This document shows positions 5,045-40,259 of a stretch of 64,000 bases of DNA, one piece after another. This DNA is from Cycas panzhihuaensis (lineage: Eukaryota > Plantae > Cycadophyta). The notes below the pieces were generated by a model. The model saw nothing but the letters and a program-made list of their open reading frames with translations, had not been told where the DNA came from and ran no database searches. The stretch spans positions 181,109,741 to 181,173,740 of the forward strand of contig CM041465.1 of assembly GCA_023213395.1 (NCBI GenBank). The letters run 5' to 3'. The position numbers were made by a program, and so were the translations under genes. How positions within the stretch are numbered: position 1 is the first letter of the stretch; the number at the start of each line of letters is the position of its first letter.

Positions 5045-5590
5045 TGTTAAACCTTATGTTTATCTTATGTTTACATGTTAAGCTTTATGTACTTTATGTT
5101 AATGTATTATGTGTGCATTTTAATGTATTATGTGCACTTTTGTACTTTAGGGGTGACTTTATCACTTAAGTGATAAAGTACACACCCACTTTATGTCTAG
5201 TGACATAACGTTGTCACTTATGTCACTTGAGGGTCAAATGACCCCCTTGCACTTTTCCTCACATGAGCTTCCAATGGACACTTGTCCTACATGCAAGCAT
5301 GCATTGCATGATTGACACTTGTCAATCATGCAATAGCCTTTGGCCTCTCATCTCCCTCCATTTAATGAGGCCTCTCTTCATTGTTGCTCATTAAGAGTTG
5401 GAGCTTCTTGTTATTCTGTCAGTTTGCTAATCAAGCTGAGCATTCTTTGGTTGTTGGACCAATTCCAACACCACACTTATGGTATCATTGTCTTGCTCCT
5501 CTTTCTCTTTGTGTTTATGCTTAATGCATTTAATGCTTTTGTGTTTTGTTATGATCTTGGACCTATGAGGCCATTTGGCCCATTCTAACA
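5045..5590 (+). repeat. D 5' LTR
   Basis: tgtta...taaca; near-identical to 11570-12115. Confidence 0.96.
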
Positions 5591-7384
5591 ATTGGTATCA
5601 AAGCTTGGTTTACTTGAGCTTGGTTTGGTGGTGTTGTCCTCACCTGTCTTCAGTTGTGTACCTGTCTATACCTGTGTGTATGTTGTATCTGCACATACTT
5701 GGAGCCAGCACTCTGAAGTCTGTCCTCTCACTATCCTCTGTCCTTTTCCCAGCACGGGAGTCCACTCCTGCAAACGCCTCTGTCTTTTCTCTGCGCACAC
5801 GGAGCCGCACAGACTTAAAGCTAGCGAGGGAAGCCAGCGCACGAGAGAAGCTTTGGAATCCCAGTCACGGGAGATGCACGTCCTTGAGAAAACCTACACG
5901 GAAAACTGCCGAGCCGCAGTAGTCTCGCCTCGCACACACCTGAGCAATCACGGGTCACACGGACTGGTTAAGTCCTGCACGGACGAACAGAAGCACGGAA
6001 GGTTCGATTCAAAGCCGGACAGCCGCCGCCCTCACGGAAGTAATATAAATCGAAAATCGAAAATCAAATTCGATTTTAGATTAAAGACTTTGGCCCATAT
6101 GCATTCTAGCATATTCTTATGAATATGCTCTTTTTGATATAAGTTCATTTTCTTAAAGTTTTCTTTTTAAAAGAAATTTTTTTTTAAGAGGATTTTTTAA
6201 TCATTGAGGTCCATTACCTTAAGAAAGTTTTTAAGCTTTTCAGTTTTACTTGAAAAATGTCTTAAAGAGATGTTTAGATGTTGAAAGCTTAAATGCTTTA
6301 AGAAGCTATTTTTAGTGAGATTTATTCTCCTTTCTATAAAGTCTTTTTAAGTGGCCCATAAAAGTACTTTTTAGTACTTTAAGAGGATTAAAATTTTCTT
6401 GCTGGTTAGAGGACTCATTAAATGACTTATGCTAAGTCATTCTCCTCTCTTTAAAGATTAAAGTTACATGAATTAAGTGCTTGTAAAGACTCCCTGCGCG
6501 GTGTTCTATTGATGCAAAGTTGCAAAAAAGGTTGATTTCAGCCTTCATTTTTTGCTTTTTGTTAAGCTCTTTTAGCACTCATTTTAATGCTATTAAAGCA
6601 TTAAGAGCTTAATTGAAGTGGTTAATAAGCATGTTCATATTGTAAAGGTGACATTCATCACCATTTGAGCTGATTTTTTGGCACCTTGCATGGTGTCCCA
6701 TAGCCTTCAAAATCTCAAAAAGGAGGCTAAAATACTGGTACTTAATAAAATTACTCTTTCTGTTGGATTGTTGGGACTATTTTAAAGTCTCAACAACTTG
6801 GTACTTGGCGTTCGCTTGGTGTTTGGAGTACATTTCGTACACTTTGGCAAGTGGTTCTCTCTCTACATCAGCTTTGGAGCATTAAAACGAACCCACTTCT
6901 GCAATCGTCATCAAGTTTTTGCTTCATTTTCACTAAGTACTAAACTCTCAAAAGTACTTACATTTTGTACTCAAGCACTTCAACATCTTACTTGGATTTC
7001 AAAAGCACTTAAAACACTTAATCAAAGTGCTCATTATTCTCATGTACTTGCTTCTTAAGAAGCCTATCATTGTAAACTAAATCAAAGCATCCACACTAAA
7101 GTACATTATCCAAGTAAATGTACCTTAAAAATTCACTTTAAAACTTTCTAAAAGTGAATTTAAAATCTGGTTGGAGAGGCTCGAAAAAGGTTTAAACCTT
7201 GCCTCTGCTACACTTAACTTGGACCAACTCAATAGCCGAAGTCCTCCACCCCTCATCACTCCACCCAGTCGTTGGATCTTCTTGTAAAATCAGGACTGGT
7301 GGTGTTGTTAGAAGGTGGAACTTAAGTGACAAAGCTTTGAAGTTACCAAGTTATTTGCTAGCCTTTTAAGCATACAAGTGAAAC

Positions 7385-10300
7385 ATGGCTGCTATTAACA
7401 TGCTCAATCCATGCACAATAAGATTAACAGGACAAGGAAATTATCAAGAATGGAAAAGAATCACACAAAATCTCTTGATAATGAATGAATTATGGGGATA
7501 TGTTTTTGGAAGAATCCCTAATCCTACACTTGTTAACGATGATGAGGATGATGTTGATTATGAACGTGTTGCTGCTTGGGAAGCCAAAGACGAGATTGCT
7601 TTAGCATTTCTTCATATGATTGTGGATGTGCATGTAGATCAAAATATCTCTTCTGCTAAAACTTCTAAAGAAGCTTGAGACACTTTGTCCTCATTGTACG
7701 AAAGGCGAGATGAAGCTCGCATTCTGATGGTGAAAGCCAAACTGTATTCTGTTAAGTTTGTCAAGCCAATGTTGGCTTTTCTTTCCTCCATTAAGGAGGT
7801 ATGTAATGAACTGAATACTTTAGGTAGTACTGCAACAAGGGATGAGCTCATCACTTCCATCACCAAAGCATTGCCAAAGGACTATAACGGCTTCATTTCA
7901 TCTACCACTCGAGATGGTTCACTTAAGAAGATGACATTTAATGAACTTGAAAGCTTATTGCTTCAAGAAGAGCAGGTTTATGCTAAGGGCAATGAAGAAC
8001 CATCTACACCAGGTGCTTTCACGACCAAGTCAAAGGCCAATCAGATCTCCAAACCTGCATTCACAAAGCAGTTTGGAAACATGAACATTGGCTCCTCAAA
8101 GTCCAATGTTGTATGTCATTATTGTGGTAAACCTGGCCACATTGCACCTGATTGCGAGAAGAAGCAAGCGGATCTCGTCGACAACAAAGAAGAAGAATAG
8201 CCTCAAGGACAAAGACAACAACAGCCAAGGCAACAATATCAACAGAGATTTCAGCAGCCAGAACAGCAGCAAAATCCCCCTCGACCAAATCGAGATGCCT
8301 ATCGAGGAGGTCAAAGAGGAAGGGGGGGTCAAAGAGGTGGCTACCAACACCACTTTAATCAATTTGCCGATAAAGACAAACTATTTTGTGCATATCACTC
8401 ATCCAAGGTTGATCACACTTGGATTGTTGATTCAGGAGCTTCACAACATATGACAAGGAGTGGAGAACTCCTTTGCAATATTGAGGAAGGTAAAGGTCAA
8501 TCAGTGACCTTTGGAAATAACGAATCTGTCGAGATTTCAGGGATAGCTCCTTTCCACTCTTCAGAAAATCCTTCCTCCACATTTCCCAATAGTGATGCAT
8601 ATTTCATTCCTTCCATGGAGAAGAGTTTGCTATCTGTTAGCAAGTTGGACAAGCAACAGATGAGCGTTTTATTCAAGAATGGGAAATGTATCATTAGTGA
8701 CAAAGATGACCAGATTGTAGCTGTTGCATATGAGGATCAAAGTCTTTACAAATTGGATGCCAATAACATTACACTTGATTATGCTTATTCTGGTTCCATG
8801 GTCACTATATCTTTGTCAAAAATGCAATTATGGCATCAACGTCTACGTCACTTAAGCCTAGATAATCTTAAGCAGATGATGAACAAGAACATGGTATATG
8901 GGCTTCCGAAGATATATGGTTCAAAATGTCTTTGCGAGGCTTGCATAATGGGGACTCAGCATCGTTTGCCTTTTCCTAAAGGCAAAGCTTGGCGTGCATC
9001 TTATCCCTTGCAGTTGATTCACTCAGACTTATGTGGACCCATGTCCACTCAATCATTTGGAGGAGCATTGTACTACATCTGCTTCATTGATGACTTTTCT
9101 CATAAAGTCTGGGTCTACTTCATAAAGCAAAAATCAGAACCATCCTCTAAGTTCAAAGAATTCAAAGCTGAAGCAAAAAACGAATCTGGCTATTCAATTG
9201 GAACATTAAGGACAGATAATGGAGGTGAATTCACTTCAAATGAATTCAACCAATACTGCAAGGATAATGGGATTCGAAGACAACTTACAATTCCTCATAC
9301 TCCTCAACAAAATAGAGTCTCCGAAAGGATGAATAGAACTTTGGCCAATAAAGCCAAAACTATGATGCATGCGAAAGGACTTCCTCGAGCTTACTGGGCC
9401 GAAGCATTTCATATAGCTGCCTATGTGGCCAATCAGAGTCCTACTACAACAGTCACCAACATTACACCTGAGGAGGCATGGACTAGTAAGAAACCGACTA
9501 TCAGCCATTTGAAAACATTTGGGTGCACTGCATATATGCACATACCTGATCAACAAAGAACGAAGTTAGATAAGCATAGTCTCAAATGCATCTTTGTAGG
9601 ATATGCCATTCATAGCAAGGCCTACAAGTTGTATGATCCAGTTGGAAGAAACATGCATCTCTCAAGAGATGTAATCTTTGTTGAAGATGATCAGAAAGAG
9701 TTGGATGTGGCATCTATCCAACCCCCCATTGATAAAGGCAAAAAGATTGTTGAGGACTTCCCTCCCTCTCAATCTTCTACACCATGTACTTCATCTGCAC
9801 CTGCTGGACCATCCACTTCATCATCTTCTGCTCCACTTGAACCTCCCACATCATCTTCTGTTGATCAAACACTTAGACCAGAAGACATTAAGGTTCATGC
9901 TACTTCATTTCAAAAGTTACCTAAATGGTATACTCAAACGGTGCAGGACGTTCACATTATTGAAGGGAAACGTCCATCGAAATATAGGCAGCAAACAAAT
10001 TTTGCACTTATGGCTGAAGTGCTTTCTGTTGATGAGCCTTCCACCTTTGAGGAGGCTTCAAAAAATGACAATTGGAAAGCTGCCATGGATGAGGAGATCC
10101 ATTCTATTCACAAGAATGGCACATGGGATTTGGTCGAATTGCCTCCACATAAACAGGCAATCAGTTGTAAATGGGTCTATAAGACCAAATTTCATTCTGA
10201 TGGAACACTTAAGCGTCAGAAGGCACGCTTTGTGGCAAAGGGATTCAAACAAAAAGAAGGCATTGATTATGAAGAAACCTTTGCAGCAGTGGCAAATATG

Positions 10301-11560
10301 AACACCATCAGACTCCTTTTGGCCTTAGCAGCACAATGCAAATGGCCAGTTTATCAGACGGATGTGAAGAGCGCCTTTCTTAATGGCGATCTTCAAGAGG
10401 AGGTATACTTGGAGCAACCTCCTGGTTACAAAGAACAAGGCAAGGAGCATCTAGTGTGTCGCCTCAAAAAGGCTTTGTATGGCTTGAAACAAGCTCCTAG
10501 GGCATGGTATGCAAAAATCGATGACTACTTCTTGAGACATGGGTTTCATCGATCTACCTCAGATCCTAATTTGTACATCAAACATGAACAAAACCATGTC
10601 ACTTATATTGCCTTGTATGTAGATGACTTAGTGATCACTGGTGATGACACTAAGCTCATAAAGATTCTCCGGGATGATTTGAAGAGAAGTTTCGAGATGA
10701 CTGATCTTGGACTTCTCCATTATTTTTTAGGCTTTGAGGTATGGCAGCAGCTAGGCTATATCTTCATCTCCCAAGCAAAATATTCTTGGGACATCTTGCA
10801 GAGGTTCAGGATGCATGACTGCAAGACAGCGCCTACACCCATGGAGAACGGAACCAAGCTTACTCTTAATGAGGAAGCTGAACCAGTAGATCCCACTCTT
10901 TACCGTAGCTGATTGGTAGTCTCATCTATCTCACCAACACTCGTCCGGACATTTCATTTGCAGTTGGGATTTGTTCTCGATTCATGTCTCAACCCAATCA
11001 AGCATTGAAGAAGAAAGAAATGCATACTCAAGTACATCAAAGATACATTCTGACTTGGCCTTGAGTATGCACATAATGAGAACTTCACTTTGGAAGGGTT
11101 CTCTGATTCTGATTGAGCAGGATGCCAGGATAACAGGAGATCAACCTCGGGTTACTATTTTACCCTTAGTTCAGCAGTTGTTTCATGGAGTTGCAAGAAG
11201 CAACCAAATGTTACCTTGTCCTCCACTGAGTAGTACAAAGTGTCGGTAGCAGCTTGCGAGGCTATCTGGCTACGATGGATTCTTGGGGAACTTGGACTTG
11301 AGCAGGATCAACCTACCAACATTCATTGCGACAATCAGAGTGTGCTCAAGCTGACTAAGAATCCCGTCTTTCATGCACGGACCAAGCATATTGAAGTTCA
11401 CCACCATTTCATCAGAGAGCATGTACACAGTGGTGAGATCAATCTTCAATATCGACCAATAGAGCAGTAGACAGCAAACATCTTTACTAAGCCACTTGGT
11501 AGAGAGAAATTTGTAAAATTTAGAGATGGTCTTGTGGTCCGGCTTAACATGGTAAACAAT
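7385..11560 (+). pseudogene. D gag-pol (gag, CCHC, PR, GAG-pre-INT, INT, RT, RNase H) with a few stops and frameshifts
   Basis: [74 protein letters not shown]. 820-aa open stretch at 8450-10912; TGA at 7676. Confidence 0.93.
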
Positions 11561-11569
11561 AAGGGGGGG

Positions 11570-12115
11570 TGTTAAACCTTATGTTTATCTTATGTTTACA
11601 TGTTAAGCTTTATGTACTTTATGTTAATGTATTATGTGTGCACTTTAATGTATTATGTGCACTTTTGTACTTTAGGGGTGACTTTATCACTTAAGTGATA
11701 AAGTACACACCCACTTTATGTCTAGTAACATAATGTTGTCACTTATGTCACCTAAAGGTCAAATGACCCCCTTGCACTTTTGCTCACATGAGCTTCCAAT
11801 GGACACTTGTCCTACATGCAAGCATGCATTGCATGATTGACACTTGTCAATCATGCAATAGCCTTTGGCCTCTCATCTCCCTTTGTTTAATGAGGCCTCT
11901 CTTCATTGTTGCTCATTAAGAGTTGGAGCTTCTTGTTATTCTGTCAGTTTGCTAATCAAGCTGAGCATTCTTTGGTGGTTGGACCAATTCCAACACCACA
12001 CTTATAGTATCATTGTCTTGCTCCTCTTTCTCTTTGTGTTTATGCTTAATGCATTTAATGCTTTTGTGTTTTGTTATGATCTTGGACCTATGAGGCCATT
12101 TGGCCCATTCTAACA
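11570..12115 (+). repeat. D 3' LTR
   Basis: Follows the PPT; followed by TSD aacat. Confidence 0.96.
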
Positions 12116-13077
12116 AACATAAGTTGGGCTACCAAAGATTCTAAGATGACTTACATCAGGTTTTCTACATGTCCAGCTCTCTTCTAGAGTCAGTTTTTCA
12201 AAAACCTGTGTTGGACTCCTATTTATGAGATAGACAATTGTGTTAACAACTTCGGACCAATATGAGTTGGATACATTTTTCTCTTTCAATATGCATCTAG
12301 TATAATTATAGTTCAATTCATCCCTTCTGTTGCCCCATTTGATTAAGAAGTATAAGGGGTGGTAAGTTGTCTACAAATTCCATGCATTCCGTAGAAATGG
12401 CAAAATTCATTTGAGACATATTCCCCTCCTCCATCTGTTTTGAGGATCTTGATTTTATGCCCCCTTTCTAATTTCACTTAAGCCTTGAATTCTTTAAAAA
12501 TCTCTAATGCTTCTAACTTGCTAAAAATAAAAAACTCCCAAGTTTACTGGTATAATCATCATTAAAGGTGAGAAAATACCTTTTTCCATTGATAGAAGTT
12601 GGTGTGATCAACCCACGTATGTCATTAAGAATTAAATCCAATTTCTCTTGTGATTTCCAAGTGCTTTCCTAAAATGGCAACCTATGATGCTTCCCCAACA
12701 TGCAAATTTCACAAATAGAGGAATTGAAAGAGATATCAGGTACACCATTTACTATATTCAACTTTTTGAGCATTTCTAATCTGGTATTTGCAATGTGACC
12801 ATATTATAAATGCCACAATTCATTATTTGAGCTGAGTAGCTAGAGAATGAACAATAGAGATTTTTTCTAATAAGTCATCTTGAGGAGTTGATCCTATTGT
12901 ATTTCATCCTCTAACATTGATTGAGTTGTGAATAGCCAAAGAGAAGCAGGTTGAATAAGAATAGAGATTAATTCATACAGATTATCCGTCTCTATTCCTT
13001 CAACAATTACAAGGCCATTTTGTTTCATATCATAAATGAAACATTTACCATCTTCATCAAACATAGTACGAAGTGTT

Positions 13078-16000
13078 TGTTAAACTTTAACATGGAAGAC
13101 ATTCATCATCAACAATAACAATACCAATAAGCATAGATTAACTCAACATAATCAGAATACATTAACATACCAAAGCACCATAGATTCAACATGAGCCTTG
13201 ATGATTACCATCTTCCATATCCTACCTCAACCACCTTTATATACAAAACAGGTGGGAGGACATACAAGACAAGTAACGCATGTGGGACAACTACCTCTAT
13301 CGTAACCAATGACATTATACCAACTAACTTAACCAATAAGCTTCTATCTTCTCACATAATGATAAGTGACTCTTAGACTCTGATACTTAGGACTATAACT
13401 TTATTGACCCTAAGACACACCTTACATTAAACATTATATTCTAACACCTCCCCTTAATGTTTAATGTCAAGACCACACGAACTTATTACCAAAGACAACA
13501 TGACATTTAGTATTAAGGACTAACAACAAAATTAACACACACTAATATAAGATTTGACTTGAAGTATTGTTCGAATTTCCAGTGCCTCAGTCTAGGAATC
13601 TTCCTGAGGATGATGTCATGAGCTTGGTCTTCGACTAAAAAGCAACAGAGTCTTTTATCCCTGTGCATCATGATTGTTCCATCCCCTCTTGTTTCTTGCT
13701 TGATGTCTGCTACAATATCTGACTGTAAGTGCAATCTACTTTGATTATTATCTCTAGGATCAAACATGACAACATATGATTTGGACCCCATGGAAAAAAT
13801 GGATTCCTCTTTGTTTGTCTTCAAGACAGCATGTATGATCAACTTCTCAAGCCAACAAATGCTCTCTTGAAAGGAGAGAAGAGACAATGATTTCTTTTCT
13901 ATCTCCACCTGTGCAGGTACTTGTTCTGAATCAATAAAATATTTTGTTTTGTCTTCATCACCCAAGAGATCTTTTGTCGTACCAAATACGATGAGGATTT
14001 CTATTACGATCACATATACGTACCTCCCAATTATGATTACATAAGAATAGTGTAATATCTTAACATGATTGCCTCTCTTGACCAAGTATCCTGCCCATAA
14101 CATGCAACAATCTTGGTAGACAAGATTTTGATCAAATGATACTCCAACTATGTTCTTCCTTCTTTTGAATGAATCTTCTAGAACCAATGTAGGATATGTT
14201 AACATAGTTTGAATTCTTTCAAGGATAAGCATAGAAAAAGCTACCATGTCAAATGCGGTCATACAAAGTCTTGTGCATATGCATACAACGATGTAACCTG
14301 ACATTGTTTGGAACCTAGCAACAAATTTATCAACATAGATTAAAGCGATATAATCCACACTTTCCACTAAGCCAGTTGAGTTTCCATATTGAACCACCTG
14401 TAATAGATCAATTTCAAAATTTTCAATGTCCATCCTTTCACTCTTTCCTGTCAACATGCTGAAACTCAAGATGTTTGATGGGATAATTCTCTTCTCAACC
14501 TTTAGTTCTTTATTTTCATCTTCTTCCTCAGATCCTAAGCAACGATCTAAGGTTAGATCACCAATAAGTTCACTTGCAGAGATTACTTTGTCACAACAAT
14601 TATATTCACTTATTTCTTCATCAATAGAGAACCTATTTTTAGAAATAAGTTCACATACCTTTTCACCTTCCTTATCATCAAATGAATCTATAAGAGATTC
14701 ATTCTTATGGAAACTGACCTGATTACATGCATTATCCTTTTTGATTTTCCTCTTCAATTTCTTTTTCTGATTCTTTGTCAGGTTATTGTGTGTAGCATGC
14801 ACTTCTTCCTTTAGACTAGCTATAATTTTTTATTTCTTTACCTTCATTCATTGGTTGTTGGTTTGTCAACTTGGAATCAAATTTCTCTTTTATGAAGTTC
14901 CATGATTTCTGTGCCCTACAAGTAGTATTTTAGGTGAGGCAAAAAATATCACTGAATTTTATGCAGCCTCCTTGTGTGGACATGAAAGAAATCCATTGAA
15001 ATACTAATGTGTCCTTTTGTTCCAGCACTGGTGATACATCATTGTATCCTTCTAAAACAATCTCCCATAAGCCAAGGGAGATGAGCCAAGACTTCATGTT
15101 TTTTTACCATTCTAAATAGTTGTCTTCTGTTAACAGAAGATGAGCATGACCCATTTTGATAACCTTACAATCAAACTGCTATTGTGTCTAGTTATGAATT
15201 TTCTTAGGACTGCTTTTGTACTTGAAATCAGAAACTCGCCAATTAAATGTGACAAGAAATGTTCATTGGACACTACATTTGCTTCAAACTAATAGTCCAC
15301 AATAAAGATATTTAAGGGTGAGGATTTTATCACCTTGCTCTTAGGGAACAAATCAATTTAGCCATTGAAGTTTCTTTAAACTGTCCATTCTAACTCCACT
15401 AGAATGTCTCTTGACAAGTGTTAGTTGCCTTACCATCAACGAACTTTTCTTTGGCCTTGGCGATTCCAACTCAGAGGCATCTATGCCTCCACCTGACTCT
15501 AGCTCCACCTAAACAACTGGAGTATTCCTAAGCCCATCTTATCATGTTGTTGTCCTTCCTTACATCTTAGTCGACTATGCTCACTCAGGACTACAATCTG
15601 CTATGAAAACATCCTCTTCTAGAATTCAATCGGCTAGACTTCCCTTGCCAAAACAGGGACCTTCAAGTAACTTGATATCAAATGTCAGTCTGGACTGACC
15701 ACATATGAACAATGATTAACCTCCAGGCGAGAGAATGAATAATGATAGACGTTAACTGCTACCAGTAATAGTCCTGAGGCATCCAATAAAAGTCCTTTTA
15801 AGAGTCGATATGCCCTAAACCTGAAAGTTGACTCTAATGCACCCTCTGGCCAACAATTGCCTCTAACCAAGAAGCAGGCAAATGAGCATCTCTAGAATGC
15901 TGACGTATATAGTTCAAAATGCCAGCTTTTGCATGTCCCAGTAAAATCCTGGGAGGAGGTAAAACAAGACCCAAGCATTGGCAGACTTGAATGGTCAAAT

Positions 16001-17463
16001 GATATAACCAGCTGATTTAAATCGTAGGGGCTGCAATGAATGCTTTACAAAGAAAGTTCTCTCAAAAAATTGCTTCATTCCTAGCATCCGTCCATTATGA
16101 ATTTGGATGCAATAAATTCTAAGATCTCGTGGCGTTATTCACCACGGCTCAGAGTAGAATTTCCTAACAGTTTGCCTTTAATACTTCGATCGACTGCAGG
16201 GCTATATACTACGCGAACAATCCTCTCTATAGCATAGATCAATTATCTTTATATAGTCCAGTAGATGTCTTGATGAACGCAGACAGCACTCGGCCATAAA
16301 ATCTAACAGCATGCCTCCAGCTCCACATGCCTTTTCTCAAATCTCCCTATGGGTTGAAAAGTAGCTCCCTAACTTAGCATCATCTCTACTGATAGTTTCT
16401 TGAAGGGTATTCCCTCTACACATATCTTGTGAGTTTGCAGTTATTTGGGAGCTATGTCACAACATGAATAAATACAGAAGACATATGTGCACCATCAAAC
16501 AGAAACTCATAAGCAGATTTACTGGCAACTATTATGTCACTATTTGCTTGTTGCAACAATATCTTGTGTAACTTCAATTGTAGTTTCACCAATATTTGCA
16601 AAATAACTCATGCGGGAAGCTTTTGCATACCAAGCTTTTTTGCAGACTTGGTCAAAGAAATGATTATAATTCTTGGACAATAGATCATATGAATAGACAA
16701 GCCACTCTCTGTCAAAAGCTTATTCACCTTGATGTAGGATCAAATGGCCTCAAATAGTTTGAAAGAACCAGAAGAATGCCAATGGATAATAGATATAAAT
16801 GTCACCTCAACAACCAAAGCTAAGGGCTATGAATCAACAGAAAGAAACTTCATGACCATGCTTCACACCAAAAACTTCACTCGCAACCAAAACAAGCTTA
16901 AGGGAACAGAATTACCTAATACCAAAATCTGTCTTGTATCAATACTTGGCACACCTTGCTACACTGAGGGCTTTAGGACTTCACCTTCCCAATAAAAATC
17001 TTCAATCCAGCAACCAACTTAACAGAACCACCTGCACCCTTATCAAGCACTTGATGAACTTGCATGACAACAGCGTTAACATGCAACCTGCTTTGATACC
17101 ATGTTAAACTTTAATATGGAAGACATTCATCATCAACAATAACAATATCAATGAGCATAGATTCACTCAACATAATCATTAACATACCAAAGCACCATAG
17201 ACTCAACATGAGCCTTGATGATTACCATCTTCCATATACTACCTCAACCACCTTTATATACAAAGTAAGTGGGAGGACATACAAGACAAGTAATGCATGT
17301 GGGACAATTACCTCTATCGTAACCAATGACAGTACCCCAACTAACTTAACCAATAAGCTTCTATCTTCTCACATAATGATAAGTGACTCTTAGACTCTAA
17401 TACTTAGGACTATAACTTTATTGACGCTAAGACACACCTTACATGAAACATTATATTCTAGTA
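13078..17463 (-). mobile_element. Element E: pol-less Copia-type LTR element
   Basis: LTRs 13078-13446 and 17102-17463; TSD gtgtt/atgtt. PBS (rc gctttgatacca) ends at 17101; PPT (rc cctcccctt) at 13447. No PR, INT, RT or RH motifs inside. Confidence 0.92.
13513..15154 (-). pseudogene. E ORF: Copia Gag N-terminus fused to a basic patch and an unknown hydrophobic domain (429 aa still open)
   Basis: From ATG 15154: MGHAHLLLTEDNYLEW*KNMKSWLISLGLWEIV...AQKSWNFIKEKF (Gag-N-like). A frameshift near 14825 leads into ORF 13513-14802, which ends just before the PPT. Confidence 0.75.
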
Positions 17464-18343
17464 ATGTTTTCTTTCTTAATTGAGATACAAAGAGAAGATT
17501 CTTCTTTAAGCTAGGAACATACAAGACATTTCTAATTTTCTTGATCTCATTATTTATTTTTATGGATATAGTTTTTTTGCCTTTGATGTATAAAGAAAAT
17601 TTATCTCTCAATTCTACTAATTTGTTGAGAGAGTATGGTTGAAAATTGTCAAACCAATCCTTCCTTCCTGTCATGTGATTTGAAGTGCCTAAATCTATGA
17701 ACCAATTCTCATTGTTATGAATACATGAAATTAGGGCATTGATAAATGCAGCAACCTCACATGTACCTTGATCATCTTGAACATGAGCATCTGGACAAGT
17801 ATGTTTACAATATTCTTGAAAAAAACTTTTTCTTTATCTTTGAAGCAATATTGTACACATAGTGAAATCCTTTAGAAATAATACTTTGCATATTATAAGA
17901 AATCGAAACAAGCCTTAAACTTTCTAAGCAACTCTCTTCAATTATAATGACCAGATCCATCTTTGCTAAAAGAGCACTTCCTCTAGGCTTAGAATGTACA
18001 CTTGCTTGCAAAAGATCATTCTTCAATTTCCTCAAAAAAAAAGGTTTCAACTTTGAATTGAATTTCCTTTATGAAAATGGCATTGAATTACCTCATTTTA
18101 TAGCGCATACTATAGTACTTTGAGGCAGGATTAAAGTTTAGACAATTTAGAAAACAAACTTCTGGAACTAAAGATGTTAATAAAAAGGCACAAGAACCCT
18201 TTTATAACGACAAAGTTTGATTTAGCCCCTTTTAATAATTAGCAGTTGGTCGCATAGGCCGCTCATTTAACCAAGGACTATCTCGCTAGGGTGTTAGCAT
18301 ACTCGCACTAAAAATCCAATTTAGCTAAATTTAATAAAAACCT

Positions 18344-18346
<3 letters not shown>

Positions 18347-18382
<36 letters not shown>
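18347..18382. repeat. (AT)18 microsatellite
   Basis: Read directly from the sequence. Confidence 0.95.
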
Positions 18383-18384
<2 letters not shown>

Positions 18385-19719
18385 TGAAGAACCAAATGAA
18401 ATGTGGACAAAACTGTGTGATGCTTTTGAGAAAAAGAAGACAAATAGACACGTTGCCCTGATGTTGGAGTTTCAATTCACATGTCGAAGATGAGAATAAC
18501 ATTAGATCCTACCTGAATAAGATTACACACTTGAAGAATAAGCTAGAAGAACTAAAGCAAAATTCAATCGATGATACGTTGTTATTCGCGATAATCATGT
18601 CGAGTTGCCAATTGCCTTTTCCAATTTTTAGATCATATACGGTAGAGATGAGGTGCTAGAGGCAGAGACTTTTGATGGTCTTAGAAACCTTATTCTAGCA
18701 GAGGATGCCAAGCCGAAACATCATGAAATTCTTGGAGGTTCCAAATCAAGTCAGGCTTTAGCCATGAAGACTCAGAGGAAAGAGGCCACTCAAGAGGAGA
18801 AGTTCACATAGAGGTCTAGAAAATGTTTTCGAAAAAAGAAGAAATTCAATGGAAAATGCAACTACTGCAAAAAGGATGGTCACAAAGAGAAGAATTGTGG
18901 TTCAGGAGACGTGACAAGCACAAAATAAACTAGGATGACAAAGGGAAGAGCGTTGTTGCTCATTGTATCTGGGAGATAACCTTATCAGCTGAGTCTAATT
19001 GGAGAGATTATTGGATTCTTGACTATGGAGCACAAAAGCATCTCTCTTACCAGAAACGCAACTTTGATACGGGGGACGAAAATCATAGTGATGCCGAAAT
19101 CATCTTTGGAGATGCTCGCATATTGCTAGTGGAAGGTATCGGCGAAGTTTCCATTGCAAGTGGTAAGTTTATCGAGGTATATTATGTACCCAAGATGCAA
19201 TTGAACCTTCTTTCAGCCCGGGAGATCTACAAACAAGGTATGAAGGTGGAGCTATACCATGATAGATGCTTGATTAAGGATTTGAAGCAAAATTTCTCTG
19301 TCATTGCTACTGGAAAAGTCAAAGACAACTTTAGGTTGTTTAAGAAATTTGAATCTCAGAAGAAGTCTTATGCCTTTGTCACCAGCACTAATGATGTAAG
19401 TTTTGGCATGATCATCTAGGACACCCTAACTATAGGAGCATCGCACTACTGAAGAGGTTGAAGATGGTAGAAGGATTGCCATGAGTTTCCTGCTTAGATG
19501 GTGTTTGTGAAGGGTGCATGTATGATAAGCGTCATCGATATCCTTTTGCTCGGGGTAATGCTTGGAGAGCCATGGAGAAGCTGGAGCTTGTGCATTCAGA
19601 TATAATGGGACCACTCCCAAACCCTTTGATATTAGGAGCTCGTTACACCCTAGTGTTTGTAGATGATTACACTAGGAATGCCTAGATATACTTTTTGAAG
19701 CAAAGGTCAGAGGTGTTTG

Positions 19720-22700
19720 TGTTGAAAATAACATGGAAAGCATTCATCAATAAACACCAAACAATATCAATGGATAAGAATCACAATGAATGAACTCAAC
19801 ATCAACAGATTACATCAGAACACCAACCATACCATGGACAACATGAGTCTCCATGATGACTTGATAATACATACTACCTCAACCACCTTTATATACTAAA
19901 TAGGTGGGAGACTATACAACACAAGTAATGCATGTGGGACAAATACCTTTGTCCTGACCAATGACATTACACCACTAACTTGACCAATAAGATTTTATCT
20001 TCTCACATAATATTATGATGACCCTTTGACTCTAAGACTTAGGACTTTGACTAATAATCCTAGGACCCACTTTACTTAACCACACACACACATTAAACAT
20101 TATATTCTAACACCTCCCCTTAATGTTTAATGTCAAGACTGCAAGAAGTGACTGAATACAAGAGACTAACATGACACTTTGACACATCTAACACACATTA
20201 ACATGAGACTTGACTTGAGTTTGAAACCATAGAAACTAAAGACAACATGACAAGACTGACATAGGACTTGACTTGGCTTGTCTTTGAAGTAATGTTTGAA
20301 CTTCCATCTCTTGAATCTTGAAATCTTTCTGATGGCGATGGCGATGTCTTGAGTCTTGTCTTCATCCAATGCACTACAAAACATGTATGTCTTGATTGCT
20401 ATGTTGTGTCCTATTTCCTATTTGATGAATCTTCCTGTGTACTCCTGGGAGAGGTATGGTCGCCCTAGAATGAATATGAAATAAATTGACTTCTCCTTGT
20501 GGATTTCCAAACCTGCCAAGATGATTGATTTTTCAACCCATTGATCACTTCCTAGAAGAGTGAGCAATAATGATCCATTTCTGAATTTCCCTTGTTCAAA
20601 AACAAGATACTTTGTTCCTTTCATGTTATCCAGGAATTCATTGTGCCAAGAATGATGAGAGTCTCCATTATGGCCATATGCACGTATTTCCATGTTATTG
20701 CTATACAAATGTGAAGCTTTACTTTGATGTGATTGAGCTTCAAGGTCAAGAATCCTATCAAAAAGCTACAGTGATCTTGATGCACAAGATTTTGATCATA
20801 TGATATTCTCCCCATGTTTCTTCTTTCTTTGGAAGAATCTTCCAATGACCTTGCAGGGTAGGCCATCATAATTTGGATTCTCTCAAAGATGAACATAGAG
20901 ATTGAATTGAGAGATATTATGGAAAGTCTCCAACACATGCATATCAATGTATATCCAGACATCATTTGTATCCTAGCTGTAAATTTGTTGGCACAAACCA
21001 GAATGATATTATCCATACCTTTTGTTAACCTACTTGTGTCTCCATGAACTATTATCGGTAAAAATTGATGCCTGGAATCTTCAACCTCCAAAGTTGGTTC
21101 TTTGATGAGACTTAAGGTATTTGATGGAGTCAAGACTTTGTCATGCTGCTTTTCCCTTTTTTCTTTCCTCTTCAACTTCTTCCTTTGATTCTTTGCCCTT
21201 TTGATACTCCACGCACTTCTTCGTGTCCTTTTCATGCACTCATTAGCGCTTCAGGCGCCTCACCGAGTCGGTATTTTGCAGAACCTGGACAATGAAATGA
21301 TAGGAAGAAGGAAGGTTATCCTTATCAAAGGTTGCAAGTATTACATCGATAGCAATTATGTTTTTCCGTTTGAAAGTTTCCTCCCCTTCTTCGTGAGCCA
21401 TTTCAGTACCCATAACTGTTTTCCAAAGTTTTTCCAGTACGAATAAGCTCTTCATCTTAATTTTCCAAAAGCGAAAATTGATTCCAATATAATATTTGGG
21501 TAAGGGAAAAAGGAGATCTGATAACCAGTATTCATTTTTTTCAGGTACAAAGACTATGACATCACTCAACTCCATGATGTATGAATGAAACGATCAAAAA
21601 AATATCCACTTTGGCCAAAAAAGTCTAACAAATCAAAAAGGTACTTGAATCCCCATAATAGAATTCATCAGTATTTCACTCTGGCAAAAGATCATAGAGA
21701 CCACACCAGAACACAACAGTTGCAAAAGACTCTTGTTGTGGGATGCATGCAGGAAGCACACTTATTTGCTTAAGTTCTCTACAGGACGGTCTCACAGCAT
21801 CTCAAAATGACTATCCACTTCTGGTTGGAACCCTCAGCATTCAAGATTACTACAGCCTTCAAAGTGGCAAATGACATAGCAGATTTATGTCAAACAACAC
21901 CAGACCGTTCAATGCCACTTCAGTCTCATAATTGTAAGTTGTTTCTACAGCCTGAGAGAGCATCAGTTCCAATAGATGTTAATGACACAAACACACAAAC
22001 AGTGTTTGGAACGGAATAATTGCAGATTGTCCTTAGGAAACTAGAATCTGTGGTCAACTTGCTTAGAAGAACAGTCCCTTTTCTTACAAATCAAAGCTCT
22101 GACTTTAGATCTTGAAGACTCATTCCTCAGCCAAACACAGATTGCTCTTGATCATTTTATCTCTGCATTCTAATTTTCCAACTCAGTTCACTTTGATAAT
22201 ATGCTTCAAATCTAACACTTGGCTGCCAGAGACACATTATTACATATCCAATCAGGCAGTGGCACAACGAACTTACAACACTACTGTTTGCAGCAAGGAG
22301 CTGACTCAGCCAGATCTTTCTTCTGAATTCTGAAGTTTCAAGACCTCTAGTTGTGGATGGGGTAGAACCTATTGCAAGTTCACATCAAGGACAGTACCTG
22401 TAAGGAGAAGGAGCTGGCATAGCATTCAGAGCTGTAGGTGCCACTTTAGTGCATCATAGTTTGGGAGTATACAGATTTGAATCCTGGGATATACAGTGTT
22501 GTTCACCTTTCTCAGAGAGGTCCTTCTTATACTCTTCAGTTTGGACTTCAAACAGAAAATTACATTACTCAAGGGCAGGTGCAGATGTCAAAACCCGACT
22601 CCATTCTCAGACTAATGTCATACAGGTATGTAACAGTAATATTCTAATGGTGCAAGAGTGTATTCGTAATAGAAATTTCAGTAAGGCTTTAACAGGATTA

Positions 22701-24374
22701 GGGCAGCATCGTAAAGTGGACTATACATAAGTGGATGCCCTGTACATCTTTCAGGGGTAATTGTTCAGCAAGTCTTCTAATTGTTGCTCTACAACCGTAT
22801 AGTCCCTTTGAATGGAGATTTTCAAAACTGTGATAATTGCAAAGTTCTTTCAACTGTAGACTTCACTTGGTTTGAACTGGAGACACAGTGGATAGGTGTT
22901 ATGATTACAGTTTAGTCTATGCCTTTTCAAATTTCTATGTCAAAGTTCACAGCAGCAGAATTCGTATTTGGTGGAGAAACTCGCATACCTAGATCGATTA
23001 GCACACTTATTTACTAACGTGGAACATCAACTGTATATGACATATCGTGCATGCACCGCCCATAAAGTGGATGCTTCAGAAGCATGAGTCTCCTTTTTTT
23101 GTCTCCTAAGCTCAGATTGGGAGATATTCAGATTTCATCTTCAAAATTTTTCAAAAACTGAAATCTACTGCACACTATTTTCTTTATAGGCAGGAGAACA
23201 GAATTTCCCGGGATTTGCATCAAAACTTGGCACTGTGGGGTTTCATCTTCTTCACTCAGAAACTCAAGGCATGCTAGCCTCGAGTCAATCACCCACTATC
23301 TCAAAGATACAGTCCTTGGCTAGACTTCCTTCTCTCTCAGAAGTCTGCCGCTACCTAGAAGAGTTCGCTATGAGAAGATACCAGTCTGCAGTGTTAGAGA
23401 CCCTATACAGAAATTATGAGTCCAATTCTACAGTGGTTAGGGCTTTGTAGATGATCGTGGCTGACCACTCAGAGGCCCTTACTGTGGGCTACAAACGACC
23501 TTCTACTCAGGCTAGTTCCTCCACACAAGACTAGTCAGAATCAACCATGTGCAACTTTCCCATAGATGGCAGTCTATTAATCTTCCTTCAATCCACAATA
23601 GTTAGCATACTTTTCTTTATCTATGGCTGGTAGAGTTTTAGACACTAATTCATAACTTCAGTAAGACTGATATAAAGGATCTCCTCTTCTCTTTTGCATA
23701 CACAAAATTATACCGAGAATTTTCAGAAACAATATTAGATGAGATGGTAACTTACTCCAAACTTTACCAGCCACTTCTCAACAAACCAGAATAACCAGCT
23801 AAGAGATCAGTATTACCCGGTCCAAATTTCTGTTGACCCAATACTTGGCACACCTTGAATTAATGATGACGTGAGCCTTTACCTCTTAAATCTTCATTCT
23901 GTCAGCGACCCTAATGGAGTCACCTTCCTTCCTTATCTGCACACAAAAGTCTTAGCAAGCAACTTGCTCTGATACCATGTTGAAAATAACATGGAAAGCA
24001 TTCATCAACAAACACCAAACAATATCAATGGATAAGAATCACAATGAATTAACTCAACATCAACAGATTACATCAGAACACCAACCGTACCATGGACTCA
24101 ACATGAGTCTTCATGATGACTTGATAATACATACTACCTCAACCACCTTTATATACTAAATAGGTGGGAGACTATACAACACAAGTAATGCATGTGGGAC
24201 AAATACCTTTGTCCTGACCAATGACATTACACCACTAACTTGACCAATAAGATTCTATCTTCTCACACAATATTATGATGACCCTTTGACTCTAAGACTT
24301 AGGACTATGACTAATAATCCTAGGACCCACTTTACTTAACCACACACACACACATCAAACGTAATATTCTAACA
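19720..24374 (-). mobile_element. Element F: pol-less LTR element of the same family as E
   Basis: LTRs 19720-20112 and 23978-24374 (about 10 substitutions and 2 small indels); perfect TSD GTTTG. Perfect PBS TGGTATCAGAGC (rc 23966-77); PPT at 20113. Inserted in G's integrase. Confidence 0.95.
20166..21575 (-). pseudogene. F ORF, homologue of the E ORF (frameshifted)
   Basis: Gag-N-like NFRFWKIKMKSLFVLEKLWKTV, then KNQRKKLKRK...MSGY...ERIQ...LEDS...DQNLVHQD...RKISRFKRWKFKHYFK, which aligns with E. Confidence 0.78.
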
Positions 24375-27300
24375 GTTTGATTGCTTCCGTGACTGGAAAG
24401 CAATGGTGGAAAACGAAAGTGATAAGAAAATTAAATCATTAAGAAGTGATAATGGCAAGGAATATGACAATCATGTGTTTAATCAGTTCTGCCACGATCA
24501 TGGTATAAAGCGGGAATTTACGGTCCTGTATACCCCACAACAGAATGGAGTTGCTAAAAGAAAAAACCATACCATGATGGAGATGGCAAGGCGTATGCTG
24601 CACACTAAAAACCTACCACCGATGTTTTGGGCAGAGGTTGTGGCAACTACTATTTATATTTTGAATTGGGTACCCACTCAAGCAGTTTGTAGCATGACCC
24701 CTGAAGAAAAATGAACCAGTCAAAAGCCTGTCATTAGCCATTTGAAAACCTTTGAGTGTATTGGATATGGCCACATCCGATATGACACTCACAAGAAGTT
24801 GGATCGAAATGGTTTGAAGTGTATCTTCATGGGGTATTATGATCAGAATAAAGCTTACAGACTATGGGATCCACATTGGAGAAAGATTGTGGTTACTCGA
24901 GATGTAAAATTCGACGAGTCATCAAGGTATCATGCTGATAAATCGTCAGAAGAGCCTTTTTACCCCCCATTACTTCTGTTCACAGATTCGTCAAGCAAAG
25001 AGGCTAATGAGTCAATCGATGGAATACATGAGGAGGCAAGACCAAGTGGGTCAAGTAATAGCGAGGAGTCGTCACGAGAAGAAGCACCTCTAGCAACGGG
25101 TCCTTCTATACCATTATGGGCAAGGAAGACTTGAAGATTCTAGCGTGGCAATGCATACCCTTACTAATGAGAGATAAACAAGAAGTCAACATGCCAATCG
25201 AACTCTGTTGGTAGACACCAACAACCCCAGTGATTTTGATTCGTTTGATGGGGCGAAAGGAGATCCATGATGGAGAGTTGCAATGGAGGAAAAGTATGGT
25301 TTGTTGATAAAGAACGATACATGGGATTTGGTTCCGCTCCGTCCCACAAAAAACCTCATTGGATGTAAATGGGTCTGTAAGATGAAGTTCCACTCTGATG
25401 GAGAGGTGGACAAGTACAAGCTTGTTACTCAAGGGTTCAAACAGAAAAAAGGAATTGACTATGAGGAGACGTTTACACTAGTCTCCAAGATGACAACGGT
25501 CCAGTTGATCATTTCCTTAGGAACTGCTTATGGTTGGGAGTTACACTAGATGGACATCAAGTGTGCATTTCTTAATGAAGATCTAAAGGAAGAGATACAC
25601 CTGTCGCAACCTCTAGGATTCATTAAGGAAGGCTAGGAGCATCTTGTATGTCAGCTAAAGAAATCAATCTATGGCCTAAAACAAGCACCATGTGCTTGGT
25701 ATAAGAAGATTGATGCCAAGTTAAAAGCTGAAGGTTTCAAAATTTTTGAACTCGACCCGAATTTGTATGTGAAAAGGAGGGACACTTCAATAGTTGCTTG
25801 TGTGGTGTATGTGGATGATCTAATCATCAGTGGCAACTGTGGCAAGACTATTGTAGAAGTCAAGTCCAATTTGGGAGCTTCTTTTGACATGACAAACCTC
25901 AAGAGACTTCACTATTTCTTAGGCATTCAGATCAAGCAAATGGACGATTGAATTGTGTTGTTGCAATCGCAGTATATGAAGAACCTACTAGAGAAGTTTG
26001 GGATGTAGAATTGTAAACCTATTGCAACACCATGTGTTAAGGGTGCAAGATTGCAGAAGCATATGGCCAAACCCTCTGTAGATGGAACGAAGTATCACTA
26101 ATTGGTAGGGAGTCTGATCTACTTGACTCATACCAGACCAGATATCGCCTATGTTGTTGGATTGGTATCCCGATACATGCAAAATCCTCAGGAGCCACAT
26201 TGAGTTGCCACGAAGCGGATTCTGAAGTGCCCGAAGGGGAAAATCAATCTTGGTCTCAAATATCGTCAAGGTGAGGAGACAAGGTTGCATGGCTACACGA
26301 ATGTTGATTGGGGAGAAGGCTCTAGCGATCGGAAGTCCATTGTTGAATACATATTTGGTGTCGGTAATGGATTTGTTTCATGGCAGTCAAAGAAGCAGCA
26401 AACAGTGGTGTTATCTTCTACAAAGGCTAAATATCAAAGACTCAGTGCTCGTGCGAAGGACGCTATATGGTTGTAAGGTCTCTTGGAGTTTCCAATGGAC
26501 ATCCAATTATCTTTGTTGATAATCAGAGTACCATTCATTTGTCGAAGAAGCTAGAGTTTCGTACACGTATGAAGCATATCAAGATTCAACACCACTACAT
26601 ACGTGAACAGATCAAGTCAGGGAAGTTGTAGGTCGACAATTGTCCAAGTGAATTCCAGATTACAAATGTGTTCACCAAGCCACTTACTGAAGATCAATTC
26701 ACAATGATGCGCACCGGATTAGGACTCACCGATGTTGTCTTTGAGGGGGGATGTATCGACAAGGATAAAGAAGCTGCAAGATAGTCCTAGCCTTCGTGAT
26801 AACACAATTGTTACAAGTTGCAGGCTCCCCACATTCACATTAAGGGGGGATGTTAACGTGGCAGTTGTATGCTAAGCCACCAATTAATGTTCATGTGGTT
26901 TAACTAATGGTGATTAACGAAAAGATGTCAGAGATATTTGAAGGGTCACAACCCTTGTCGAGTGACACCTCTTGGAAGGATATATATATATCCTAGAGCC
27001 CTTGTATTTCCATAGATCATTGGAGTGTAAGCAATGTGATCCAAAAGGATCTTTTGTGGTGGGTTTTTTCCTGAAAGGGTTACCCATGTAAATCCTGAGT
27101 ACTGTAAATATGTATTCTGTGTCTATATTTGTTTTCTTGTTGTGTATGGTTAAAGATTCTGCGGATAGGAACATATGTGTATGATTTCATGTTCCCAAAC
27201 AAAACGATAGGAGGAAAAACTCCACAGTAAATAGGTCAAGCCACCAAAAATGGATGAAGAAAAGCAGTCTCCACAGTGATGGTGTCAACAAAGACAACAT

Positions 27301-35780: not shown

Positions 35781-38700
35781 TATTAAGACAAACAGTTGAT
35801 ATGAAAATAGCCTTCATGATTAAGAGAAAATAAAATCCTCATATATATACATCATGTGTAACATGTGTAGTTATTAGAGTTTATGCATGTATGCCACATG
35901 TCACAATTACATAAAAGAGGGATTTGACATATAACCCTCATGATAACATTAGAAATGAGCCTAAAGATAAAACATTATATTCAACACCCTCTCTTAATGT
36001 TTTATCTATTTTTCATTAATTCTAGGTCTATCTCTAAAGTATTGAAACTTGCTTTTAGCAAGTGGCTTTGTGAAAATACCAACAACCTGTTCTTCACTGA
36101 CACAGTGGAGTAGATCCAATTCTTTGCTTTGCACCTTTTTGCTTATAAAATGATGATGAACTTCAATATGTTTTGTTCTGGCATAAAATACTGGATTTTT
36201 TGTCATTTTGATAACACTTTGATTATCATAAAAAAAAAGTAGTAGGATGAGTTTGCTCTTGTTTCAAATCCTTTAGGAGCTATCAGATCCATACAGCTTC
36301 ACAAGTGGCATTGACTGCTATTTTATATTCAATTTTAGTGGATGATAAAGCTGCATTTGGTTGTTTCTTACCGCTCCATGACATTACTGTTGAACCAAGT
36401 GAAAAACAATATCCTGTTGTAGATTTTCTATCTTGGTTGTCTCTAACCCAGTCTGAGTCACTGTGTCCATTCAGTTGCATACTAAATATCTTAGTATAAC
36501 TTAGGCCTATGGTTAGTGTACCTTTGATATACCCGAGTATTCTCTTTGCTACATTCTAGTGTGAAATCTTTGATTGTTACATGCACTTAGAGATTACTCC
36601 AACTGAGTACAAGATGCCAGGTCTAGTGGCTGTGAGATAGATGAGACTGCCTACCAATTGCCTATACAATGTTGTATCTTGAGCATCTGTATCATGAATC
36701 AAAACACACCCTATCTCCATTGGAGTAGACCAACTGTTACAATCTTTCATTCTGAATTTTTTTAGAAGATTTCTAACATAGTTTGATTGTGATATAAAAA
36801 GTGAATTCTTCTATTGTTTAACTTCAATCCCAAGATAATAGTGAAGAAGACCTAAATCAGTCATTTCAAATTTTTTCTCCAATAGGTATTTTATTTGTAA
36901 GATAGACTCATCATCATTGCTTGTAATGATCATGTCATCTACATAAACAACAATGATAGTGATCAACTCATTATTTATTTTGATATATCGAGTAGGATCA
37001 GAACCACTTTTACTAAATCCATTTTGATTGAGATGTTTGTCCAATTTGGCACACTAGGCTCTCGGTGCTTGCTTTAGACCATAAAGAGGCTTTTTTAATT
37101 TGCAAACAAGATGTTCTTCTCCTTTCTTTATATAGCTAGTTGGTTGTTGCATATATACTTCTTCCTTGACACCTCCATTCAAAAAGGCACTTTTGACATC
37201 AACCATCCTAGCCGAGCTACTAAAGCTATAACTATTCTCACAGTTATTAACTTTGCTATAGGAGAGAAGGTTTTATCATAATATATTCCAGCAATTTGAG
37301 TATATCCCTTTGCTACTCTAGTTTAGCCTTATATTTTTCAACTATTCCATCGAATTTCTCCTTAATTTTATATACCCATTTACAGTCAATAATGGGTTTA
37401 TCCTTTGGAACACTAACCAATTTCCAGGTTTTGTTTTTTGTAATAGCATTCATTTTAGTATCCATTGCTTCCCTCCATTCAAAATGATCACTTACCTCTG
37501 CAAAACTTTCAGGTTCAATTGAACAAATTAAACTCTGATGTTTTTGAGACCTTGTTCTTTGTTCAAGCACGTCTCCTTTTGTTTTTTCAATTGTTTTGAT
37601 ATACCATTTAGGCATTTTCTTTGAACATTTTCCCGTGGTCACTTGGGAAGAACCCTGTTTAGGAATATTTTATACTTCTCCCAAACTTACTTCATAAGTG
37701 TTATCTTATGTGTTTCCTTCAGAACGTTCTTCGTTTGACTCGTTTGAGTTTGCCAAAGTGATCTTCGGCCTTTCTTCAATTGGAACAATTGACTTGTGAA
37801 GTTCCTCCACCTATCTGCAAATTATCTTGTCTCCTTGATTAGTTTGTTCATCAAAGACAACATCCCTGACGACATAGACCTTGTTTGTTTTTGGGTCTAT
37901 ACATCTATAAGCTTTAAACTTATCACTATAACCAATCATAATGCATTCTATGCTTTTGTTGTTTAGCTTAGTTCATCTTTTATTTGGAATATGAACATAA
38001 GCTTTACAACCAAAAATTTTAAGATTACTTACATCTACCTTCCTTCCTGTCCAAGCTTCTTTGGGAATTACTTTGTCCAAGGCTTGAGTTGGATTTCTGT
38101 TAATTAGGTACATCGATGTGTTAATAGCTTCTTCCTAGTATGTTTTTGAGACTACTCTTTCATCTATCAAACTTCTAGCCATTTCCATTATTATGTTCAC
38201 GTGTTCTACTATTCCATTCGATTGAGGTGTATAGGGAGTTGTCACCTGTCTTTGTATTCCATGCAACTTATAGAAATGATGAAAATCACTTGATATGTAC
38301 TCACCTCCTCCATTAGAATGAAGACTCTTGATTTTGCATCCACTTTCTAATTCAACTTGGGCCTTAAACTCTTTGAAATAATCTAGAGCTTTAGATTTGC
38401 TGAAAAGAAAGTATACCCATGTTTTCCTGGAGAAATCATCAATAAATGTAAGAAAATACCTTACACCATTTATAGAATTTGGAGTTATGGGTCCACACAA
38501 GTCAGTATGAATTAACTCTAATTTCTTTTCAGCTCTCTACGTCCCCTCCTGGAATGGGACTTCATGTTGCTTAACCACCATACAACTTTTAGAAACAAAG
38601 GAATTAAATGTTATATCTGGAAGTCCATTCACCATATTATAATTTTATAATAATTCTAATCTTTTGTTTGAGATATGCCCATATTTAGAACGCCAGATTT

Positions 38701-40228: not shown

Positions 40229-40259
40229 TCCACATACTTTGTATTTCACATTTCGTCAA

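Follow-up and report, generated by a model that had tools for sequence, protein, structure and literature searches.

Non-autonomous long terminal repeat (LTR) retrotransposons are usually regarded as cis signals accompanied by decaying filler, or as donors of Gag; how they come to replicate better than their helpers is still to be explained. The env-like extra open reading frame (ORF) of the SIRE/Athila type is a separate ORF located between pol and the 3′ LTR, with conserved transmembrane helices. In wheat, variants of the RLG_Sabrina family encode unique short proteins, two of which are akin to viral capsid proteins, according to the accessible part of PMC9744471. Here, we describe E and F, two minus-strand Copia-type LTR elements within a 64-kb window of Cycas panzhihuaensis DNA (contig CM041465.1, positions 181,109,741 to 181,173,740; ‘the window’ is this whole stretch of 64,000 nucleotides). 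An original prediction, made from the letters alone, had proposed a pol-less family encoding a conserved, unrecognised hydrophobic protein fused to a Gag N-terminus. Our analysis indicates that the feature is real, with a moderately constrained ORF that probably encodes a pol-derived fusion rather than a foreign membrane protein. Our best explanation, to which we give an even chance, is that E and F represent a non-autonomous Copia-type family whose conserved frame would be a shrunken gag-pol aiding its own RNA into helper particles.

Anatomy of the elements and their reading frame

E spans positions 13078–17463 (minus strand, 4386 bases) and F positions 19720–24374 (minus strand, 4655 bases). 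The 3′ and 5′ LTRs of E (13078–13446 and 17102–17463, minus strand) are identical at 343 of 362 aligned bases (94.8%) and those of F (19720–20112 and 23978–24374, minus strand) at 383 of 393 (97.5%). The primer-binding site (PBS), TGGTATCA(A/G)AGC, directly abuts the 5′ LTR in both elements (17090–17101 in E and 23966–23977 in F, minus strand); that of E is presumably of the initiator-Met type. The same polypurine tract (PPT) adjoins the 3′ LTR in both (13447–13458 and 20113–20124, minus strand), and 43 bases around it are identical between E and F. The 5 bp target-site duplication (TSD) is exact in F (GTTTG at 19715–19719 and 24375–24379) and has one mismatch in E (GTGTT at 13073–13077, ATGTT beyond the 5′ LTR), where the outer LTR end carries two further changes. 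E is inserted between the protease and integrase parts of a minus-strand Copia pol, and F splits a plus-strand Copia integrase. Since each is nested inside another Copia pol, both moved as units. Retrotransposition, as originally asserted, is thus confirmed by the cis signals, TSDs and nesting, with the amendment that the TSD of E is imperfect; the span given at the time (13513–21575) covers the ORFs and not the whole elements. As E and F moved without enzymes of their own, established LTR biology implies that a helper supplies them.

The two elements form part of a four-level nest (2776–27818), in which a Copia element, H, holds Copia B, E and a plus-strand Copia (approximately 18.4–27.1 kb) that itself contains F. 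The LTRs of H are 185 bases long and alike at 168 of 185 positions, with the TSD GGAAT.

The leaders comprise 1950 bases in E and 2378 in F and can be aligned over their first 230 bases only. About 120–145 bases after the PBS, a 19-base motif is identical in the two elements (16940–16958 in E and 23839–23857 in F, minus strand; two matches, none in 100 shuffles) and is a candidate signal for packaging or dimerisation. F has a second, weaker copy at about base 745 of its leader. The approximately 2 kb leaders contain 37 and 41 ATGs, so that it is not obvious how the genomic RNA would simply be translated. Between elements, the LTRs (13078–13446 versus 19720–20112) are alike at 298 of 361 aligned bases (82.5%), compared with about 61% for the ORF DNA, and the distal leaders cannot be aligned. 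From the alignments, the far greater closeness of the LTRs suggests constraint on them, or LTR exchange.

In E, an open stretch of 438 codons from stop to stop (13513–14829, minus strand; 429 had been counted originally) ends about 65 bases short of the LTR. Upstream of it, a Copia Gag N-terminus of about 100 residues (14830–15154, minus strand) lies in another frame; it contains two stops, and the frame breaks at its 3′ end. In F the frame is in three pieces on the minus strand: a first with the Gag N-terminus (21243–21593; profile match E-value 1e-5), a second of 209 codons with the basic patch and the middle domain (20621–21250) and a third with the RNase H-like part and one internal stop (20283–20600). 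Neither copy is therefore one intact ORF, contrary to the single sense ORF per copy first described. However, the basic patch of E (KNQKKKLKRKIKK; 14737–14775, minus strand), for which the sequence suggests RNA binding or nuclear import as candidate roles, is also present in F and in the homologues P0002 and P0003, and P0003, an independent copy, reads from the end of the Gag N-terminus into this patch. Because P0003 crosses that junction, we infer one ancestral frame of about 545 codons, and it is very probable that the Gag N-terminus and the rest formed one fused frame in active ancestors.

Other elements of the original description are borne out, namely the truncated Copia Gag, the basic patches, the E/F protein alignment (35% identity over 189 residues and 32% over 102; tblastn E-value 1e-38) and the position of the ORF end just before the PPT. 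This is where pol ends in the complete Copia copies of the window, and the ORF ends about 65–170 bases from the LTR. The Gag pieces of E and F both match positions 10–100 of a 72-sequence Copia profile (E-value about 1e-5, ten targets); in Pfam, the F Gag stays below the cut-off (Retrotran_gag_2, E-value 0.02; DUF4219, E-value 0.09). Pfam scans of four E/F pieces showed no zinc knuckle, protease (PR), integrase (INT), reverse transcriptase (RT) or RNase H (RH), and a profile search of the family for a capsid C-terminal domain (CTD) found nothing.

Selection on the reading frame

The ratio of nonsynonymous to synonymous substitution rates (omega) between E and F is 0.43–0.45 on 280 codon pairs by MG94-type maximum likelihood (interval approximately 0.30–0.65; p 2–3e-5) and 0.47–0.49 on a 153-codon core (same method; p 0.003–0.004). 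Counting methods give 0.34–0.84, varying with the assumed transition bias. In an alignment made from DNA only, identities at codon positions 1, 2 and 3 are 172/287, 196/288 and 157/290 (60, 68 and 54%; position 2 versus 3, p 6e-4; position 1 versus 3, p 0.18); of the 11 gaps, five have lengths divisible by three, as have the sums of two adjacent pairs. With the protein-guided alignment, the difference of 0.198 between positions 2 and 3 was reached in none of 600 stop-free neutral simulations. A neutral branch of the E/F length is expected to accumulate 10.8 stops per 321 codons. For E on its own, remaining open after insertion has a chance of 0.25 and is unremarkable. Omega on the RT copies of the window, computed as a calibration, can be read only as far below 1, synonymous sites being saturated. 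The constraint on the protein between E and F is genuine, though moderate; the accessible part of PMC13547354 gives a precedent for higher dN/dS in accessory than in core transposable element (TE) proteins.

Constraint is unevenly distributed. Omega is 0.15 at residues 160–235 (74 codons), 0.18 at residues 316–424 (91 codons, in a gappy alignment) and 0.06 on 22 Gag codons, compared with 0.67 and 1.13 in the linkers. This distribution bears on the view that a pol relic was kept open mainly to stabilize the RNA through a short 3′ untranslated region, its protein doing little. Such a view would account for an ORF that reaches the PPT, for an omega that is high overall and near 1 in the linkers, for LTRs that are closer than the ORF DNA and for the neutral appearance of recent variants described below. 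It fits poorly with the codon-position pattern, with the low omega of the two segments and with the many leader ATGs, and a literature search on the idea turned up no matching paper; we regard it as improbable.

Recent variation within the family was taken from 40 of the 49 listed variant rows over a 261-base stretch, where 29 variants reach a share of 20% or more in X1 or X3; four were dropped as sites where E differs from nearly all copies. Among the remaining 25 (20–80% share, 189-base stretch), eight are synonymous, compared with 7.1 expected under neutrality. Of 24 top-listed variant rows in the ORF (among the best 40 of 438), nine are synonymous and 15 are not. Since these recent variants look neutral, the constraint is shown for the deep split only and not for recent diversification, and the purifying selection first proposed holds to that extent. 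One may wonder whether selection acted only long ago, the present copies being dead relics whose later expansion was independent of the ORF. Both window copies are indeed broken and old, as judged from their LTRs, and the proportion of synonymous subfamily-level variants is that of neutrality. On the other hand, this variant test is small, uses runs from other organisms and also counts methylation-type changes acquired after insertion (seven of 27 in CG/CHG context). Moreover, the 2092 records covering 261 bases list no indel, and the three ORF deletions whose junction letters are known (15 of 48 joints) remove a net 36, 36 and 39 bases. We therefore give this possibility little weight, slightly less than the RNA-stability one.

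Origin of the region behind the Gag N-terminus

The strongest indication of origin comes from the end of the frame. Against a Copia gag-pol profile (72 of 120 Copia proteins, 1343 columns), three nested C-terminal segments align best at the very end, and residues 300–424 of E (13558–13932, minus strand) are collinear and almost gapless with the C-terminal half of Copia RNase H over about 110 columns. When anchored there, the match scores 27, compared with 9.7–17.9 for nine decoy segments, and reaches p 0.003–0.013 in six of six shuffle tests, the reversed profile remaining at null level. Over 60 individual Copia RNase H sequences the median z is 3.6, with 46 above 2 and a reversed mean of −0.53; other Copia domains give mean z values of −0.5 to 1.2 with the C-terminal segment. 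These alignments make it quite likely that the last 125 or so residues derive from RNase H.

For the middle of the frame, an integrase origin is an even bet. When the family profile is compared with the whole polyprotein, the best match without gaps pairs residues 162–226 (14152–14346, minus strand), the most constrained part of E, with the integrase core (65 columns), the motif SGH...IQ...T.P...ERKN being in register. The corresponding cell (z 3.0) tops a 64-cell table of segments by domains, the 64 reversed controls of which peak at 1.26. The best alignments show R, G or K in the integrase Asp column in five of five rows, and the Glu is retained in four of five; of the acidic RNase H columns, the last one alone is retained. 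We take these columns to be catalytic. On this alignment basis, most catalytic positions are lost in the integrase-like and RNase H-like pieces, the latter probably being a dead remnant. The strongest constraint falls within these two segments and none in the linkers, which supports their reading as pol remnants.

Several results weigh against this reading, besides the neutral-looking recent variants. The family profile has seven rows only, and the RNase H idea arose from viewing the sequence and was tested afterwards. Unanchored, the RNase H match is not significant (27.0 versus 25.3 ± 2.8); nor is the integrase match when compared with best-of-all shuffles (p 0.28–0.46). An off-model cell (residues 225–290 on RNase H) has a z of 2.5, as high as the on-model one, and a collinear multi-domain chain does no better than its nulls. 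No pol is detected in E or F by Pfam searches or by a PDB profile search, and in hmmsearch the Copia profile matches the Gag N-terminus alone (12 frames). Only four of 63 member-by-domain tests reach p<0.05, spread over INT and RT with none on RNase H. The hhalign probability is at most 1.5% for any pol match; both integrase windows score above all 12 nulls, as do three other windows. No confident fold was obtained (AlphaFold mean predicted local distance difference test score, pLDDT, of 31 and 37), and Foldseek on the pLDDT-37 model gave no match at an E-value of 0.001 or below, which is uninformative given the model quality. Finally, no helper element was found within the window, and no RNA run is among the listed holders of the E stretch, which tells nothing either way.

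A foreign or newly arisen protein could instead have replaced pol behind the Gag N-terminus, the likeness to pol being due to chance. Consistent with this, the protein has no match in Pfam or the PDB and no homologue among 4017 candidates from a 5.8-billion-protein set, in a search that left longer and shorter proteins aside; its relatives in 1.84 billion representatives are five unnamed Logan singletons (40–76% identical). The unanchored profile tests are not significant, by eye PR, INT and RT are similarly good fits to the middle, and the short Sabrina proteins set a precedent in the accessible text of PMC9744471. A chance likeness would nevertheless have to produce a tail that is collinear and nearly gapless with RNase H exactly at the expected end of pol. 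We consider this explanation unlikely, yet the most serious of the competitors.

The first description had also suggested an env-like membrane protein, on which the hydropathy bears directly. E is Cys-rich and hydrophobic in composition and contains 19-mers with mean hydropathy of 2.53 and 1.92. However, the more hydrophobic 19-mer carries R and E in element E itself, and the homologues have K, H and E there and reach 1.45–1.95 in their best windows, so that the peak is not conserved; the segment is V/I-rich, like β-strands, and hydropathy of E and homologues revealed no conserved transmembrane helix. In addition, there is no Pfam env or fusion family, and the frame directly follows the Gag N-terminus, with no separate 3′ ORF and no upstream pol. 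An env-like protein is thus very improbable.

The pol-derived reading, in summary, leaves the claim of an unrecognised domain without intact PR, INT, RT or RH standing as regards standard searches (Pfam and the Copia profile), whereas in-frame remnants are likely for RNase H in the C-terminal third and less surely for integrase in the middle. Degenerate Copia pol had been named as the outcome that would overturn the proposal: its in-frame version is partly what was found. Off-frame or antisense pol was rejected, with no profile match in 12 frames and 15–49 stops in the other five frames of E. Two by-eye readings of the middle, as the C-terminal half of RT or as protease plus pre-integrase, found no support in profile and segment tests.

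Abundance, proposed mechanism and comparison with known systems

Parts of the E stretch occur in 20 of 21 listed runs (11 studies and 15 organism labels in coded form), in each case with fewer than half of the words. Over 1861 bases, 3413, 3523, 4230 and 1809 contig records were obtained in four of four DNA runs, with all 30 bins covered; these counts measure abundance and not copy number. The family is abundant and multi-copy. Five family contigs come from one run whose RNA nature is a guess. A search with the family alignment returned two of its own members and nothing else, metagenome scans gave 215 pattern matches with no relative among them, a 20-base PPT/LTR pattern in these scans hit two loci, both without the ORF, and viral contigs gave no match to the family pattern. 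The E protein and P0001 are absent from the Atlas. No such gymnosperm family was found in a literature search; supplements, Repbase, conifer TE libraries and REXdb lay outside it and may hold one. For comparison, a neighbouring RT in the window has closest full-coverage matches at 60–61% identity, including rows named Gb_ and PITA_, which we take to be the Ginkgo and loblolly pine prefixes. In the host element H, as in E and F, the PBS directly borders the LTR and the LTR begins in a similar way, although the LTR alignments are near those of shuffles (scores of 50 and 45, shuffle maxima of 46 and 55).

How could such a frame serve its element? We propose that a gag-pol lost internal parts but not its frame and was then remodelled under a constraint that was weaker yet real; it would now consist of a capsid N-terminal domain (NTD), the basic patch and dead integrase-like and then RNase H-like pieces. 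The retained Gag piece (profile positions 10–100) equals the Copia capsid NTD in size, and plant Copia Gag matches the Drosophila Copia capsid structures. In these, the NTD (residues 1–90) forms the central spokes of the capsomers, and the CTDs lock the periphery, as described in the accessible part of PMC11835246. An NTD without a CTD would be unable to build a shell alone and might join a helper lattice; the element's own RNA would be held by the basic patch together with the dead nucleic-acid-binding pieces. Such co-assembly with helper Gag, in line with the capsid-hijacking protein of the original prediction, is possible, and we advance it tentatively. More speculative is the idea that a widespread gymnosperm parasite has made gag-pol into a new protein that docks in the capsids of its helper and favours its own RNA for packaging or integration. 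Equally conjectural is that this protein, combining capsid NTD, pseudo-integrase and pseudo-RNase H, was selected across lineages about 40% apart in DNA. If true, a constrained fusion of Gag NTD and pol remnants, lacking capsid CTD, nucleocapsid and catalysis, would point to active, protein-based particle parasitism. The repeat is also abundant in large plant genomes, and classifiers that rely on domains would assign it to no class. Should the remnant be mere filler, the family simply adds to those of the TR-GAG-like kind.

Other features of the window may be noted. The youngest-looking Copia (5045–12116) has LTRs 97.8% alike, a 903-codon open pol stretch and a PBS two bases from the LTR. Two more Copia copies lie at 36009–42859 (minus strand), one nearly complete and one without RT in the window. 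An LTR pair 90% alike (55677–61229) encloses ORFs for Retrotrans_gag and aspartyl protease on the minus strand and no RT ORF reaching 140 residues, and is likely to be a Gypsy-type GAG-Pro non-autonomous element. A 177-codon ORF (46397–46930, minus strand) with a low-complexity Ser/Thr stretch and no Pfam match may be a host exon or a pseudogene piece.

Compared with known systems, E and F do not qualify as carriers of a SIRE/Athila-type env ORF, with no pol upstream and a hydropathy peak that is not conserved. Like the non-autonomous wheat RLG_Sabrina and RLC_Angela copies (PMC9744471) and RLG_Quinta (PMC11302176), the family is high-copy and helper-dependent. Sabrina and Quinta are however Gypsy elements; Quinta contributes Gag and the Sabrina proteins stand in for Gag-Pro, unlike those of E and F, and the coding sequence of non-autonomous Angela is fully broken. 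The accessible parts of these two sources describe no fusion of a Gag NTD to dead pol pieces for any of the three. The non-autonomous families of sugar beet resemble E and F in having degraded RT, RH or INT fragments and no full coding capacity, but their remnants are patchy and decayed (PMC13570524, in its accessible part), whereas those proposed for E and F lie beyond standard detection, in frame with the Gag N-terminus and under constraint.

In its mode of action, the family resembles TR-GAG or ‘semi-autonomous’ elements (PMC4350172, PMC9744471, PMC11302176). TR-GAG elements, in the accessible part of PMC4350172 (Chaparro et al. 2015), are also non-autonomous, with PBS, PPT, 5 bp TSD, a Copia-type Gag start and no intact PR, INT, RT or RH. 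They have a single ORF, which for E and F is deduced from P0003 and would include in-frame pol remnants, and measure less than 4 kb (1–6 kb in the hidden Markov model, HMM, screen), compared with 4386 and 4655 bases. TR-GAG1 has UBN2 and Zf-C2HC domains, whereas E and F have about 100 Gag residues, no zinc knuckle and 300 constrained residues beyond Gag that TR-GAG lacks. Their best Pfam E-value (0.02) lies outside the Retrotrans_gag/UBN2 HMM threshold for TR-GAG (E-value below 1e-5), and for want of a detectable capsid domain we do not file them under TR-GAG. With respect to Ty1/Copia gag-pol, the frame is shortened from about 1330 to about 545 codons; capsid CTD, zinc knuckle, PR and RT are undetectable and catalytic residues mostly lost, while the Gag N-terminus, the type of PBS and PPT and, probably, the order Gag, INT and RH ending at the PPT are those of a Ty1/Copia element.

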